A stretch of 64,000 nucleotides of DNA from a virus. Taxonomy: Duplodnaviria; Caudoviricetes. Under the pieces are notes generated by a model, which worked only from the letters and a program-made list of their open reading frames with translations, did not search any database and was not told the DNA's origin. The stretch's first letter is position 1. Each line of letters opens with the position of its first letter. The position numbers were made by a program, and so were the translations under genes. Below are positions 10,992 to 57,946 of the stretch, piece by piece. The DNA lies in the IMG/VR virus record IMGVR_UViG_3300014205_000173. The stretch is one strand, 5' to 3'.

Positions 10992-11216
10992 ATACCCAAA
11001 AACCACATTTATAATTATGTATATCTTACAAGCTTTTTAGTATCTAGTATCTCTTTCAAATTCAACCAAATCTTCATCTGTCATATTGGGATAAGGACAT
11101 GGTTTTTTCCCATCAACGGTATAGTGATCAATATATGTTTTTTTTCTATAAATTAGAAACAAGGCTATCAAGAATACAATTATCAAAATAAAAAAATATA
11201 CAATATATAACATCAC

Positions 11217-11732
11217 TTAATCCATTTCATTCATTTTATATTGTCTATTTAATGCTGCATACTCATCCATTATTCTTTTACGTTCTTTTTCAAGAGTTTC
11301 ACAAACCTCTTTGTTTTTTTTATTGTAAAGTTCTTTGTTTTTTTTGTTATTTTTAATTTCTTCAAAGTATTTGTTTAGGATTTTTTTGATTTTTTCTTTA
11401 TAGTCGTCTGAAAACAAATAATCAATTAATATGCTTCCATCAAAATTGTCTGTCCAAGGTATTAGTTTTTCATAAGTATCTTTATGTAGATCTATTCTAA
11501 TATTTTCAATATATTCCTTGTTATCATGAGTTAAAATTGTTATTTCTCCCATACCACCTTCTTTAGCTCCATCAAAATACCATGTCCAATGTTTTCTATT
11601 CTTAAAGCCAATAGAAGTCATTATAAACTCTATTATTTCATCAAGCCTATCGTTAATTGAATATTCAAGTTTTTCCAGTTTGCTTTTAGCTGAAAAATAT
11701 TCATCTATTGTTTCTTTATAAATTTTAGCCAT
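11217..11732 (-). CDS. hypothetical protein, paralog of 9793..10302
   Basis: WYFDGAKEGGMGE motif. Confidence 0.75.
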   Translation of the reverse strand: MAKIYKETIDEYFSAKSKLEKLEYSINDRLDEIIEFIMTSIGFKNRKHWTWYFDGAKEGGMGEITILTHDNKEYIENIRIDLHKDTYEKLIPWTDNFDGSILIDYLFSDDYKEKIKKILNKYFEEIKNNKKNKELYNKKNKEVCETLEKERKRIMDEYAALNRQYKMNEMD

Positions 11733-13971: not shown

Positions 13972-14110
13972 CGTTCCTTAGAATCTACAAAAATCTACAA
14001 ACATCAGACTTTCTATCTAATTTCTGCTTCACAGAGAACAACCTCAAATACAACCACGGTTTTACACTCTCTCCACAGACTTATAATCCCGGCAAAACTG
14101 ACGGTATTTT
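13971..14110 (-). ncRNA. putative TnpB omega-RNA scaffold (boundaries approximate)
   Basis: Non-coding segment between the tnpB 3' end and the element right end, where omega-RNAs are known to lie. Confidence 0.55.
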
Positions 14111-15220
14111 ACTACTCAAACTATCATAACAAAACTTTAGATTCAAAGACGCATTCAAATCTCTATCAATCTCGTTTTTACAACAATTACACACAAAAAC
14201 TCTATCAGATAAACTTAAGGTTTTCTTTAACGCTCTACAATGGGAACAGATTTTAGAAGATGGGTAAAATCTATCGACAAACAATGTCTTTGAACCTATC
14301 CACTTCAATTTATATTCCGATTGTCTTCTGAACTCAGAGAATCCTGCGTCCTGAATACTCCGAGCTAAACAATGATTCTTCATCATGCCACTTGTATTCA
14401 AGTCTTCTAAAATAACGGCTTTTGGCTTGGTTTTCGCTATCAAGCTTGTTATTTTATGAAGACTATCTTTTCTAATATTTGCTATTCGATAATGAATCTT
14501 TTGAACTTTCTTTTTCGCTTTCTCCCTATTTTTGGATTTATCTTGCTTTCTGCTTAAAGACTGTTGCGCTCTTTTCAGATTCTTCAAGTTCTTCTTCAGA
14601 GATTTAGGACTATCAAAAACTTGACCATCAGAACACGTTGCTAAATGGTTAATTCCTAAGTCAATTCCAAGGATTTCTCCTTCTTCTATTTTCTGGACCT
14701 CAACTTCTTTTTCTGTATGAAGTGAAACAAACCAATGTCCTGCTTTTTCGCTCACTGTTATTGTTGATGGAGAACTTATTGGAAGTCTGTCTTTTTCCTT
14801 TAATCTTATCCATCCTAAACGTGGGAGCTTAACTCGATTGCTTTCGACATGAATAGAGCCCGTGAGTCTAAAACTTCCAATTCCTTTTTTCTTTGACTTG
14901 AATTTCGGGAAACCAGCTTTCTTCTTTTTCTTTATATTTCGGAAGAAGTTTTTGAAAGCTGTGTCTAAATCTCTTAGTGCTTCTTGTGGGGCGCATTTAG
15001 AGACCTCGTATAACCATGGAAACTCTTTTGATTTTAGTTTATTGAGTTCTCTATGTTGTTCTGGTGCTGAGGTTGATTTCTTTTCTTTTTTATAAAGGTT
15101 AATACGTTGAGCGAGTCCCCAATTATAAACGAATCTTGCTGCTCCTGCGTGTTGTAGGAGTTTCATTCTTTGTTTGTTATTGGGCTTTAACTCAACCTTG
15201 TATCCTTTATTTATTTTCAT
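14081..15220 (-). CDS. tnpB: RNA-guided endonuclease TnpB
   Basis: N-terminal HTH, RuvC motifs GIDLG / ILEDL / DRDLNAS, and CSHC..CNCC zinc ribbon. Confidence 0.95.
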   Translation of the reverse strand: MKINKGYKVELKPNNKQRMKLLQHAGAARFVYNWGLAQRINLYKKEKKSTSAPEQHRELNKLKSKEFPWLYEVSKCAPQEALRDLDTAFKNFFRNIKKKKKAGFPKFKSKKKGIGSFRLTGSIHVESNRVKLPRLGWIRLKEKDRLPISSPSTITVSEKAGHWFVSLHTEKEVEVQKIEEGEILGIDLGINHLATCSDGQVFDSPKSLKKNLKNLKRAQQSLSRKQDKSKNREKAKKKVQKIHYRIANIRKDSLHKITSLIAKTKPKAVILEDLNTSGMMKNHCLARSIQDAGFSEFRRQSEYKLKWIGSKTLFVDRFYPSSKICSHCRALKKTLSLSDRVFVCNCCKNEIDRDLNASLNLKFCYDSLSSKIPSVLPGL

Positions 15221-39279: not shown

Positions 39280-40512
39280 CTATCCCATTAATTCTACAAG
39301 ATATTTAATGGTTACTTGATCTGGTTTGTATACAATGAATTCGTCATTTCTAAGATCTGCACCCTTAACGCCATATGCAGAATGAAAATCTCCCTTTTTT
39401 CTCAAAACATTCCAATTTAAATCATAACACCAAGAAGAATGCTTATGGATCAAAAGTTGATTTCCAACATGAAAATCAAACAAAGACATAAAACATCTAC
39501 TAGAAGAACCTTTTGCCCAATAAGAACCCTTTGCACTTGTATAACCATATGATTTACGAGAAAGTGATGCCCCATAAATACCATCACCGTACATCGAACC
39601 TGTATATACTGCACTTGAAGGTCTAATCATAAGACCACTATCAATAATAGACCACCAATTTTCATTTCTAGAACCATGCCAAAACAATTCAGTCTTTTTG
39701 TTTGAGACTGTTGAAACAAAGTTATTAAACTTCTCTTGAGTTCTATTGTTTACAATTTTCCATGCTGACGTAAATTTATCTTTAATTTCACCAAGTTTGC
39801 TTTTAATAACCTTAACGTCATCATCATCTGCAAGAGAAAATTTAATTCCCATTGCATCAAGAATATTTAGATCAGAAGAATCGTCTTGATTTTTTTGAAC
39901 ATTAGAAACGTTAACTTGTCCTCTCATAATATCCAATGACGATTGTTCTTCAACTAATAGCTTGTTCGTAAAATCAAATTTATCTGGACTATTAAAAGTC
40001 CCAAATTGCAAAACTGCCTCTCTTGTATTTGCAATTCTACGAGGAACTGTTGTCCAAAGTTTAATAAGACAATCGTTAAATCTACTTGTTGAAGAATCAT
40101 TTTTAACTAAAGACGAAAGCTCATTTAAAATTAATTGAGCCGTATCAATTTGTTTTTGTGTAACCTGATCTGTTGTTACTGTATAGTTTGCAGCTACAGA
40201 CTTATTTGCGAATGACTGCAAATCACGTACAATTAAAGCAATACTAGAGTCTTTAATCCCAATAAAATCCCTTTTATTGCTAGCAACAACAAATAATTCT
40301 GTTTGATCTTTATATCCCTTTTTTAACTTCTCTCTATACTTACTTTCCCATTCATTCATTGAATATATTTTTTTACTTGAAGTAACTCCTACTCTTCCCC
40401 ATGTAGCTTCCCACTCACTACTATTAAGTTGTTGCATATCATAATATTTATTATTATTATCTAAGGTTACACAAACTAGTTTTTTTGTTTTATATCCAGA
40501 TTTAACGTCCAT
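39280..40512 (-). CDS. WGR-domain PARP-like ADP-ribosyltransferase
   Basis: NKYY..WGRVG..KKGY WGR domain; WHGSR, MYGDGIYGA, KS.GY, NDEFIVY (H-Y-E triad). Confidence 0.92.
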   Translation of the reverse strand: MDVKSGYKTKKLVCVTLDNNNKYYDMQQLNSSEWEATWGRVGVTSSKKIYSMNEWESKYREKLKKGYKDQTELFVVASNKRDFIGIKDSSIALIVRDLQSFANKSVAANYTVTTDQVTQKQIDTAQLILNELSSLVKNDSSTSRFNDCLIKLWTTVPRRIANTREAVLQFGTFNSPDKFDFTNKLLVEEQSSLDIMRGQVNVSNVQKNQDDSSDLNILDAMGIKFSLADDDDVKVIKSKLGEIKDKFTSAWKIVNNRTQEKFNNFVSTVSNKKTELFWHGSRNENWWSIIDSGLMIRPSSAVYTGSMYGDGIYGASLSRKSYGYTSAKGSYWAKGSSSRCFMSLFDFHVGNQLLIHKHSSWCYDLNWNVLRKKGDFHSAYGVKGADLRNDEFIVYKPDQVTIKYLVELMG

Positions 40513-54393: not shown

Positions 54394-54538
54394 AGGTAAG
54401 AAAAGTGAGATTCGAACTCACACAAATAGGTCTTCCCTGTTTCGAGAAACAAGCAATCACGTTAATTGCCTGTTTTTATCTCTCTCGTCCTTTTTATTAT
54501 AAGGCAAACGGCTATACCAATAACCGAATATTCTTACC
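54394..54538 (-). ncRNA. 145-nt tRNA-like RNA with extra arms
   Basis: Closing stem GGTAAGAA/TTCTTACC, D-like arm CGGTTA-TTGGTA-TAGCCG, perfect T-arm GTGAG-TTCGAAT-CTCAC, three internal hairpins. Confidence 0.7.
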
Positions 54539-54655: not shown

Positions 54656-54731
54656 TGGCTCCCCCACATGGGCTCGAACCACGAACCTACGGATTAACAA
54701 TCCGCCGCTCTACCGATTGAGCTATAGGGGA
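54656..54731 (-). tRNA. tRNA-Asn(GTT)
   Basis: Loop TT-GTT-AA, G73, CCA. Confidence 0.93.
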
Positions 54732-54739
54732 ACATTAAA

Positions 54740-55187
54740 CAGAGCACCTGATTACTTACTACTACGATTTTCATCGCCAACTTTTAACCTTGGATGAATC
54801 ATCATCTGTATTAAAATGTTGTTTGTAGTCTGGACCATGCCATAACCATGAGTCCTTGCTTGAAACCCATTCCATCCTTAGTAGAAGTTGGTATTTCAAT
54901 AGGATTTCTTTTAGGTCCCTACCGTCTGGCCTCTACACATTCCATATTTCCTAATTCCGAATGGGAATTCAGCCCATTATCTTCTCTTTTGGAGGGAGAC
55001 GCTCTAACTTAAGCTACTTCACAGAAATATGTTAGCTCGGCGTTGTCTCAATGCTAGCTAGTTCATTAGGGAGTTCACCGCAAATATAGAATTTTTTACC
55101 AGAAAATTTATATTTGTTTGATTTGATAGGTTTTTCAATCATAGTTTCCTATGAAAGCTGCTATTCAGTTTACAGTCAGGTGCTCTG
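54740..55187 (-). ncRNA. host of the intron: 12-bp hairpin with Asn anticodon loop
   Basis: Exons 55187-55172 and 54754-54740 join to CAGAGCACCTGA-CTGTTAA-TCAGGTGCTCTG. Confidence 0.75.
54755..55171 (-). ncRNA. group I intron (tRNA-intron/IC3-like, no ORF)
   Basis: P1 CTGT/GCAG with U.G; P10 CTGAATA/TAATCAG; P2 TCATAG-GAAA-CTATGA; Q ACAACGCCGAGCTAA; R TGTAGAGGCCAGACGG; S GCATGGTCC; terminal G. Confidence 0.85.
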
Positions 55188-55237
55188 CAAATTATTAATG
55201 CAAGAGCAAAAAATCTTATTAGTTTTTCAAAGAACAA

Positions 55238-56714: not shown

Positions 56715-57215
56715 CTAATTAATTATACTATTATATTTTACACAATAACCATTAGAATTTTCTGTTTTAATTAAATTATTATTTGAATCATATTCAAGCT
56801 TTTCCCAATAACCACCAGCACCTTCTTCTTTAATTAAATTATTATTGGAATCATATTCAAACTCTACAAAATAACCACTACTACATTCTTGTTTAATTAA
56901 ATTACCTTTATCGTCAAAATGTTTTTTATAACCCTCTTTTTCTACAATCAAATTAGATAAATTCACTTCTTCTAAAATCTTAATCTTATCAGTTACTGAT
57001 TTATTTCCTTCTGTTTTAATTTCTCCTAAAGCTTCTACCTTAAAAACTTTAGTGTCTTTCTTTGGATAGTAATATTCAAATACATCATATAAGTCTTGAC
57101 AGAAATGAAACCCATTTTTACACATTATTAATTTACCGTCTAAATTATATGTTTGCCCAACTTCATAAAGTTGGTCTTTACATTTACCATTTTCTGTTGC
57201 CTTATAACCAATCAT
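56715..57215 (-). CDS. MIGYKAT-family paralog
   Basis: Same domain and repeats. Confidence 0.9.
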   Translation of the reverse strand: MIGYKATENGKCKDQLYEVGQTYNLDGKLIMCKNGFHFCQDLYDVFEYYYPKKDTKVFKVEALGEIKTEGNKSVTDKIKILEEVNLSNLIVEKEGYKKHFDDKGNLIKQECSSGYFVEFEYDSNNNLIKEEGAGGYWEKLEYDSNNNLIKTENSNGYCVKYNSIIN

Positions 57216-57220
57216 ATTAA

Positions 57221-57946
57221 TTATCCTTTACCATATTCTATGTCAATACATTCATTGTTTTCATCATATTTAAATTTTACCCAATTACCATTAGAATGAT
57301 CTCTTTTAATTAAATTATTATTTGAATCATATTCATCCTTTTCCCAATCACCATCAGAATTTTCATATTTAATTAAATTATTGTTTTCGTCATATTCAAA
57401 CTCTTTCCAATATCCATTAGAATATTGTTCTTTGATTACATCATTATTTGAATTATATTCCTTTTTTGCCCAATTACCATAAGAATATTCTTTTTTAATT
57501 AAATTGCTATTTAAATCATATTCATATTTCTCCCAAGAACCTCCAGAACATTCTGTTTTAATACAATTATTATTTTCATCATATTCAAACCTTTCCCAAG
57601 AGCCCTCAGAAGAATCTTCTCTTTTAATATAATTTCTTTTATCATCAAAATACTTTTTAATACCATATTTTTCTATAATCAAATTAGATAGTTTAACTTC
57701 TTCTAAAATCTTAATTTTATCAGTTACTGATTTATTTCCTTCAGTATCAATATTACCTAAAGCTTCTACATTAAAAACTTTGATATCTTTATTTGGATAG
57801 TAATATTCAAATACATCATATAAGTCTTGACAGAAATGAAACCCATTTTTACATATTTTCATTTTACCATCTAAAGTATATATTTCCCCAACTTCATAAA
57901 GCTGGTTTTTACATTTTCCATTTTTAGTTGCTTTATAACCAATCAT
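57221..57946 (-). CDS. MIGYKAT-family paralog (longest, 241 aa)
   Basis: Same domain, about 6 repeats. Confidence 0.9.
   Translation of the reverse strand: MIGYKATKNGKCKNQLYEVGEIYTLDGKMKICKNGFHFCQDLYDVFEYYYPNKDIKVFNVEALGNIDTEGNKSVTDKIKILEEVKLSNLIIEKYGIKKYFDDKRNYIKREDSSEGSWERFEYDENNNCIKTECSGGSWEKYEYDLNSNLIKKEYSYGNWAKKEYNSNNDVIKEQYSNGYWKEFEYDENNNLIKYENSDGDWEKDEYDSNNNLIKRDHSNGNWVKFKYDENNECIDIEYGKG

Follow-up and report, generated by a model that had tools for sequence, protein, structure and literature searches.

The tRNA array and the element

The window, as we call the whole stretch of 64,000 nucleotides that was analysed, is part of a contig of 287,662 bp, is AT-rich with a G+C content of ~28% and contains 16 tRNA genes, all of which were placed on the minus strand by ARAGORN. 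Among its products are a TnpB, a PARP-like protein and an NAD-dependent ligase, as well as proteins that match those of jumbo and huge phages best. Within the tRNA array an element of 448 nt occupies positions 55187 to 54740 of the minus strand (numbered in the following from s1 = 55187). Its 3' end is separated by a spacer of 8 nt from an intact, intron-free tRNA-Asn(GTT) at 54731–54656 (minus strand), which ARAGORN and Rfam (66.3 bits) both recovered and which starts at the ninth nucleotide downstream, as had been described in the first-pass annotation.

In the Logan assembly of one public run the stretch was found with 0 differences at a depth of 17, a run which is probably the window's own sample, is hence not independent and excludes only an assembly error specific to the submitter. 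The search of public sequencing runs for the stretch listed this one DNA run and no RNA run. A second copy of the 12-mer arms or of the interior was not found within the window, and a repeat or MITE was consequently rejected. An inverton, with the 12-bp inverted repeats enclosing 424 bp, was dropped because intron homology accounts for the entire interior (see below). Scanning the element's ends for promoters and terminators yielded none; a terminator formed by the hairpin and the subsequent UUUAAUGU was dismissed as well, being a poor one and located 8 nt ahead of a tRNA. With blastn against GenBank phages the sole match was the neighbouring tRNA-Asn, and no homologue was found for a 210-aa ORF upstream of the element. 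A syntenic relative was sought without success via the R2K neighbour, for which the related huge-phage contigs match a different part of the genome, and via the DUF7666 neighbour, which led to a contig (L024) with no tRNA array and with an R2K gene only 26% identical to that of the window.

Several features of the surroundings were recorded in passing. A TnpB/IS605 OrfB gene lies at 14081–15220 and a gene for a protein with PARP-catalytic and WGR domains at 39280–40512 (both minus strand), and more than 30 DUF7666 (PF24703) paralogues are spread over the 287,662-bp contig, in the window at 56715–57946. At NCBI the proteins of the contig are labelled 'Candidatus Gracilibacteria bacterium' (M0P65_*); the gene content is huge-phage-like, and the label may point to the host or result from an error in binning. 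Furthermore, a tRNA-like RNA of 145 nt is located between tRNA-His and tRNA-Pro (54394–54538, minus strand; fold z-score −4.0). Closed by a stem of 8 bp, this RNA has arms similar to D and T arms and three additional hairpins in its centre, and it may be a tRNA with a short insert of a non-group-I type, as has been reported from other huge phages.

Identification of a group I intron

The element had been taken to contain a group I intron of 417 nt (54755–55171, minus strand). The proposed check, an Infernal search with RF00028, matched neither the region nor its 3' half even at E ≤ 10. The same model gave the intron of a compact homologue (L010) only 32.9 bits, under the 50-bit cut-off, and since this intron is a clear homologue the miss is attributed to a limit of the model. 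A family-specific covariance model, R1, was based on alignment A2 of seven compact tRNA introns from other phage contigs, in which RNAalifold recovered the anticodon stem, P1, P2, P3, P4, P5, P6, P8 and P9 and found 33 of the 54 pairs to be maintained by two-sided changes. R1 matched the window element over its full length (model positions 1–230 of 230) with 77.3 bits and an E-value of 4.5e-21. The boundaries of the match are exactly 55187–54740, which agrees with the ends and the strand assigned beforehand. Introns of related huge phages scored 108.5 bits (L002) and 114 bits (L006).

The pairing was also counted in a nine-sequence alignment including the window and L002 for the 42 pairs of the anticodon stem, P4–P6, P7, P8 and P9. 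Here, 94.9% of the positions were paired, compared with 31–40% when the partners were slid by 1–3 columns, and double changes were observed at 25 of the 42 pairs. In addition, a single covariance model fits the window element together with the classical introns at the U34|A35 site of tRNA-Leu (L013, L022, L023). Judged from match, helices and covariation the 417-nt assignment holds, and the element at 55187–54740 is identified by its sequence as a tRNA-type group I intron, for which subgroup IC3 is inferred from the homology with tRNA introns. No ORF of note was found inside the 417 nt.

The intron core

The internal guide (55158–55168) consists of a P10 strand, CUGAAUA, followed by the P1 strand GCAG. 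P1 is formed by CUGU/GCAG with the wobble U16·G27 at the 5' splice site, exactly as in the tRNA-Asn introns L010, L016 and L019, and in P10 six of seven pairs are formed between CUGAAUA and the first seven bases of the 3' exon, UAAUCAG. P2 is the hairpin CAUAG-GAAA-CUAUG (55140–55153), which is fully compensated relative to the P2 of the relatives. Thus, P1 with its U·G pair, P10 and P2 could all be verified base by base as originally drawn. The 5' strand of P3, CCUAUC (s58–63, 55125–55130), pairs with GGUAGG (s265–270, 54918–54923), and this helix covaries, reading CUCGUC/GGCGAG in L002 and CUUGUC/GGCAAG in L012. A placement of P3 by MAFFT at UCUAU (s98–102) was rejected, as the homology of P2-J2/3-P3 with L019 favours CCUAUC.

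The P4–P5 domain (55037–55079) holds a 12-nt and a 15-nt block that are the same as in relatives, GGUGAACUCCCU and GAGACAACGCCGAGC being shared with many of them. P6 retains two pairs, the third having been lost, and continues into a P6a of 9 bp. In P7 the 5' strand G-[A bulge]-GGCCA (54927–54933) pairs with UGGUCC (54832–54837), the bulged A256 lying between G255-C356 and G257-C355 as is typical of the guanosine-binding G-C pair, and the helix is 100% paired in the nine sequences. All helices of the conserved core pair, including those of the P3/P7 pseudoknot. The unusual GGCCA/UGGUC helix pointed out in the first-pass annotation is real: one of its changes is a wobble, pair 2 being G·U in the window and A-U in the eight other aligned members, and one is compensated, pair 4 being C-G in the window and U-A in the other eight. 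P7 also varies in L022 (GAGCA/UGCUC). Exact and gapped patterns of the window's variant gave, in IMG/VR, either nothing or a single chance match in GC-rich coding DNA (L001).

J7/3 reads GAC. P8 is formed by GACC/GGUU with an internal extension of 66 nt (54844–54917; helix check and fold) and is followed by J8/7, AUGGCA, which is the same as in L010, and the 3' strand of P7 (together 54832–54843). The junction strands J3/4, J4/5, J5/4, J6/7 and J8/7 all agree with those of the intron family. The P9 domain (54758–54829, fold z-score −4.9) includes a CGAU-GAAA-AUCG hairpin common to the window and the tRNA-Asn introns as well as P9 itself, ACUAC/GUAGU, whose CUAC/GUAG covaries with CCAC/GUGG in relatives. 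The intron ends with the terminal G (omega G, G433, 54755), directly before the 3' splice site UAAUC.

The surplus of ~215 nt is accommodated in four places, namely a hairpin at J3/4-P4 and extensions of P6, P8 and P9. The first is an AT-rich hairpin of 40 nt between J3/4 and the main P4 (s69–108, 55080–55119; 13-bp stem, z-score −3.8), which appears as an insertion in the alignments, falls on a sensitive junction and has no counterpart in any relative. P4 can be drawn here in two ways: either U67-A151 and C68-G150 make it continuous and the hairpin is bulged out, or C108-G150 is formed and J3/4 becomes long. The P6 extension (s157–245, 54943–55031) is a 9-bp stem around a tRNA-like cloverleaf at 54961–55016 (minus strand; Rfam tRNA 29.7 bits), which has a D arm, an arm with the loop CUCCAAA and a T-like arm and no acceptor, and whose stability does not exceed that of shuffled sequence (z −0.56). 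This cloverleaf may represent either an insert shaped like a tRNA or a nested tRNA that has decayed. The P8 extension covers s275–340.

Remnants of a tRNA-Asn around the intron

The 5' exon stump, CAGAGCA-CCUGA-CUGU (55172–55187), aligned with high posterior probability to the UAGAGCA-stem-CUGU of tRNA-Asn hosts. It contains tRNA positions ~20–26, the 5' strand of the anticodon stem and the loop bases C32, U33, G34 and U35. As the 5' exons of the relatives end in UAGAGCA-stem-CUGU, the outer part of this arm is assigned to the 3' strand of the D stem plus position 26. The 3' stump, UAA-UCAGG-UGCUCUG (54740–54754), was analysed base by base and by alignment to the hosts, and provides the last three loop bases, the 3' strand of the anticodon stem and a variable-loop-like UGCUC segment; the variable loops of complete hosts include GGGUC, UGGUC and UGGUU. 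A GCUC at 55204–55207, which precedes the 5' arm by 16 nt, is a possible remnant of the 5' strand of the D stem, since complete relatives show UAGCUC...AGAGCA. Its position would be compatible with this origin if a longer D loop had replaced the original one, and by a rough estimate the chance of such a motif in the AT-rich flank is ~3%.

Joining the exons of 16 and 15 nt at the proposed splice sites rebuilds an Asn anticodon loop, CUGU|UAA, on a perfect stem, both as claimed in the first-pass annotation: s1–12 pair with s437–448 in 12 of 12 positions, five of five in the anticodon stem, and the ligated 31-mer with its loop CUGUUAA has a folding energy of −20.4 kcal/mol. Among the family loci examined this 12-bp hairpin is a single instance. 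In complete host tRNAs positions 20–26 and 44–50 are complementary at two to four of seven positions, compared with seven of seven in the window. Because the hosts already pair to this extent, about three substitutions, starting from a loop of the UGGUC type, would suffice for the perfect stem, which reduces the earlier view of a stem kept up and not decaying to a slight indication.

The statement that the flanks lack any D arm, T arm or acceptor stem has to be corrected in one respect, as the 3' strand of the D stem, position 26 and the variable-loop-like 3' arm are present; the remainder of it stands. The 8 nt between the 3' stump and the next tRNA contain nothing similar to an acceptor strand or to a T arm, and the Rfam tRNA model had no match on the flanks of the element. 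After splicing in silico, ARAGORN detected only the neighbouring tRNA-Asn and no tRNA at the junction, while for the controls the same procedure returned tRNA-Asn (L010 and L016) and tRNA-Met (L002). Evidently, the exons derive from a tRNA yet cannot form one. The retained AGAGCA, anticodon arm and variable-loop-like UGCUC, together with the missing T arm and acceptor, fit a truncated tRNA gene, i.e. a tRNA pseudogene.

Relatives of the intron

Public collections were scanned with the GGTGAACTCC...GAGACAACGCCGAG blocks and the shared 3' end, resulting in 14 further loci (L009–L023 without L010), all of which are introns of 190–260 nt in tRNA anticodon loops. The hosts are tRNA-Asn(GUU) for L009, L010 and L016–L021, tRNA-Lys(UUU) for L012, L014 and L015, tRNA-Leu(UAA) with insertion at U34|A35 for L013, L022 and L023, and two further tRNAs in L011. 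Of the 16 loci examined, half in tRNA-Asn and half in other tRNAs, all sit in complete genes and none has the 12-bp stem, a pattern which the first-pass annotation itself had named as speaking against a maintained hairpin.

By insertion site, P1 and 3' end the tRNA-Asn introns (L009, L010, L016–L021), which occur in uncultured freshwater and other phage contigs, are the closest relatives. They share with the window the CUGU|UAA site (U35|U36), the P1 guide GCAG, the CGAU-GAAA-AUCG hairpin and a nearly identical 3' end, and those of the L010 type also have the same J8/7. In contrast to the window they are compact (195–199 nt), lie in complete hosts, carry neither the insertions nor the 12-bp stem, and their P7 reads GACUN/NAGUC instead of GGCCA/UGGUC.

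A locus of similar build was reached via the R2K protein in a related huge phage (L002), where a complete tRNA(CAU) is split by an insert of 437 nt with long blocks in common with the window element. Both introns are of similar size, have extensions of P6, P8 and P9 and a P10 that matches their own exon, and are followed by an intron-free tRNA of the same anticodon. They differ in that L002 has a complete host tRNA with the intron inserted after U36, and no sequence relationship exists between their peripheral insertions. In L002 (4953–5629) a near-duplicate of the intron-bearing tRNA(CAU), having the same anticodon and no intron, follows ~90 nt later, and it is possible that this arrangement corresponds to an earlier, precursor stage of the window locus.

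Free-standing group I ribozymes are known as well; the c-di-GMP-controlled ribozyme of Clostridioides difficile is a group I ribozyme outside genes. The likeness to the window is positional only, in that a group I core sits in a non-coding leader and splicing alters the transcript, whereas the window element has no sensor domain, and a regulated downstream coding gene was not seen. Group I introns in the anticodon loops of bacterial and plastid tRNAs usually go under the name IC3, for example those of cyanobacterial tRNA-Leu(UAA) and Azoarcus tRNA-Ile (PMC3984707; bioRxiv 10.1101/2020.01.27.920355). With these the window intron has in common the core, the junction sequences, the ORF-less build and the reliance on the anticodon stem of the exons. 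It differs in its length (417 vs ~200 nt), in the insertions at J3/4-P4, P6, P8 and P9, in having a stump instead of a tRNA gene as host and in scoring under the report thresholds of RF00028.

Origin of the element

The reading which we favour, with slightly better than even confidence, is that the element is the relic left by a tRNA-Asn(GUU) gene that carried an intron, and that this intron probably still excises itself. It is preferred because all relatives examined reside in complete tRNAs without the 12-bp stem, and because insertion site, P1 and 3' end match those of the introns in complete tRNA-Asn genes. The ancestor would have been a tRNA-Asn(GUU) gene with the intron between U35 and U36, redundant beside an intact copy. 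In a huge phage of low G+C content its tRNA body would then have been lost, the D loop being replaced and the T arm disappearing together with the two strands of the acceptor, and the remaining 3' strand of the D stem, position 26, anticodon arm and variable-loop-like stretch would have become the 12-bp helix that joins the splice sites. The downstream intron-free tRNA-Asn would supply the tRNA. The intron would excise itself from the transcript of the tRNA cluster, so that the leader of pre-tRNA-Asn would retain the 31-nt hairpin until its removal by RNase P. Persistence alone would explain such an element, and a further role need not be invoked.

That the window intron still self-splices is probable because it retains a complete core (P1–P10, the G-C pair, the bulged A and omega G) and the pairing of its exons. 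The intron of the Anabaena pre-tRNA reportedly needs the exon pairing in the anticodon stem, in work attributed to Zaug, McEvoy and Cech in 1993. Two observations go against the relic as formulated here. Catalysis could be impaired by the J3/4-P4 hairpin, by G·U as the second pair of P7 and by the loss of a pair from P6, and, with regard to a strictly neutral relic, three stem-perfecting changes would arise by chance in roughly 1 of 30–60 cases and every core helix has been kept. The changes in the stem, the compensated P7 and the P10 that fits its own exon give a modest hint at a continued folding constraint. The perfect stem could also have originated from templated mutation at a quasi-palindrome.

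The same origin combined with a dead ribozyme is the main alternative; we consider it unlikely, though a serious candidate. The element would then be an inert pseudogene, transcribed or not, which has not yet decayed, and the stem a mutational by-product, for instance of a template switch at a quasi-palindrome. In its favour, no tRNA results from splicing in silico and the host gene has certainly lost its function, the hairpin is absent from all relatives, there is an insertion at J3/4-P4, the second pair of P7 is weakened and one P6 pair is missing, and the R1 score of 77 bits is below those of L002 (108) and L006 (114). However, all core helices still pair and the conserved junction strands are unaltered, the change of U-A to C-G in P7 took two matching substitutions, and P10 complements the element's own exon, all of which goes against this alternative.

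A co-option of the element appears improbable. Here, anticodon nucleases would be decoyed by the Asn anticodon mini-helix that splicing releases, or the excised intron RNA, which includes the tRNA-like P6, would have an activity of its own. Such a role would be in line with the about three directed changes required for the perfect stem, with the true Asn anticodon loop CUGUUAA on a stable stem (−20.4 kcal/mol) after ligation, and with the retained intron core and the tRNA-like fold within P6; but this fold is no stabler than shuffled sequences, the element occurs only once while its relatives are all found in ordinary tRNAs, and neither a partner gene nor a conserved context was found, the upstream ORF being without a homologue. 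Repair of tRNA cut by such nucleases does not fit, since the 2',3'-cyclic phosphate and 5'-OH ends which they produce are not known to be joined by group I chemistry. No result of the analysis speaks for the decoy, repair or trans-splicing roles suggested in the first-pass annotation. Selection on the hairpin itself, i.e. a free-standing, exon-minimised group I ribozyme in a tRNA operon that yields an Asn mini-helix and/or a long-lived intron RNA, directed against tRNA-targeting defences or controlling the maturation of tRNA-Asn, is in our estimation quite improbable, and would, if true, make the locus a much more interesting case. An intron reverse-spliced or illegitimately homed into a non-tRNA hairpin resembling an anticodon arm is hardly credible, for although reverse splicing needs just 4–6 bases of P1 pairing (PMC3984707), the arms bear the tRNA-specific AGAGCA, the variable-loop-like UGCUC and the upstream GCUC, and the insertion site coincides exactly with the one in the tRNA-Asn genes of the relatives.

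Most likely, then, an oversized tRNA-type group I intron has outlived its host tRNA, and the element represents a known kind of intron and not a new device. As a relic it would be a group I intron that survived its host gene with its core and anticodon-stem pairing kept, the latter even strengthened, and would thereby offer a natural minimal-exon construct for studying selection on introns of dispensable host genes. The loci collected here document a phage intron family at the U35|U36 site of tRNA-Asn, oversized members of which are missed by the Rfam model, and because of this group I introns in the tRNA arrays of huge phages are probably under-annotated.

Further introns in the related contigs

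Additional group I introns were noted in the contigs of the relatives. In two related huge-phage contigs a tmRNA gene carries a group I intron (L002, 19594–20188; L006, 17323–17854), with Rfam tmRNA matches of 62–81 bits overlapping Intron_gpI matches of 108–109 bits. In L006 (2431–3081) a 620-nt group I intron interrupts a tRNA(CAU) behind U33; an ORF of 121 aa in this intron (2461–2826) lies on the opposite strand, which is unusual for an intron ORF. Finally, the L010 contig, which harbours one of the tRNA-Asn introns, has a second group I intron at 11152–11348, recognised by RF00028 with 56.6 bits.
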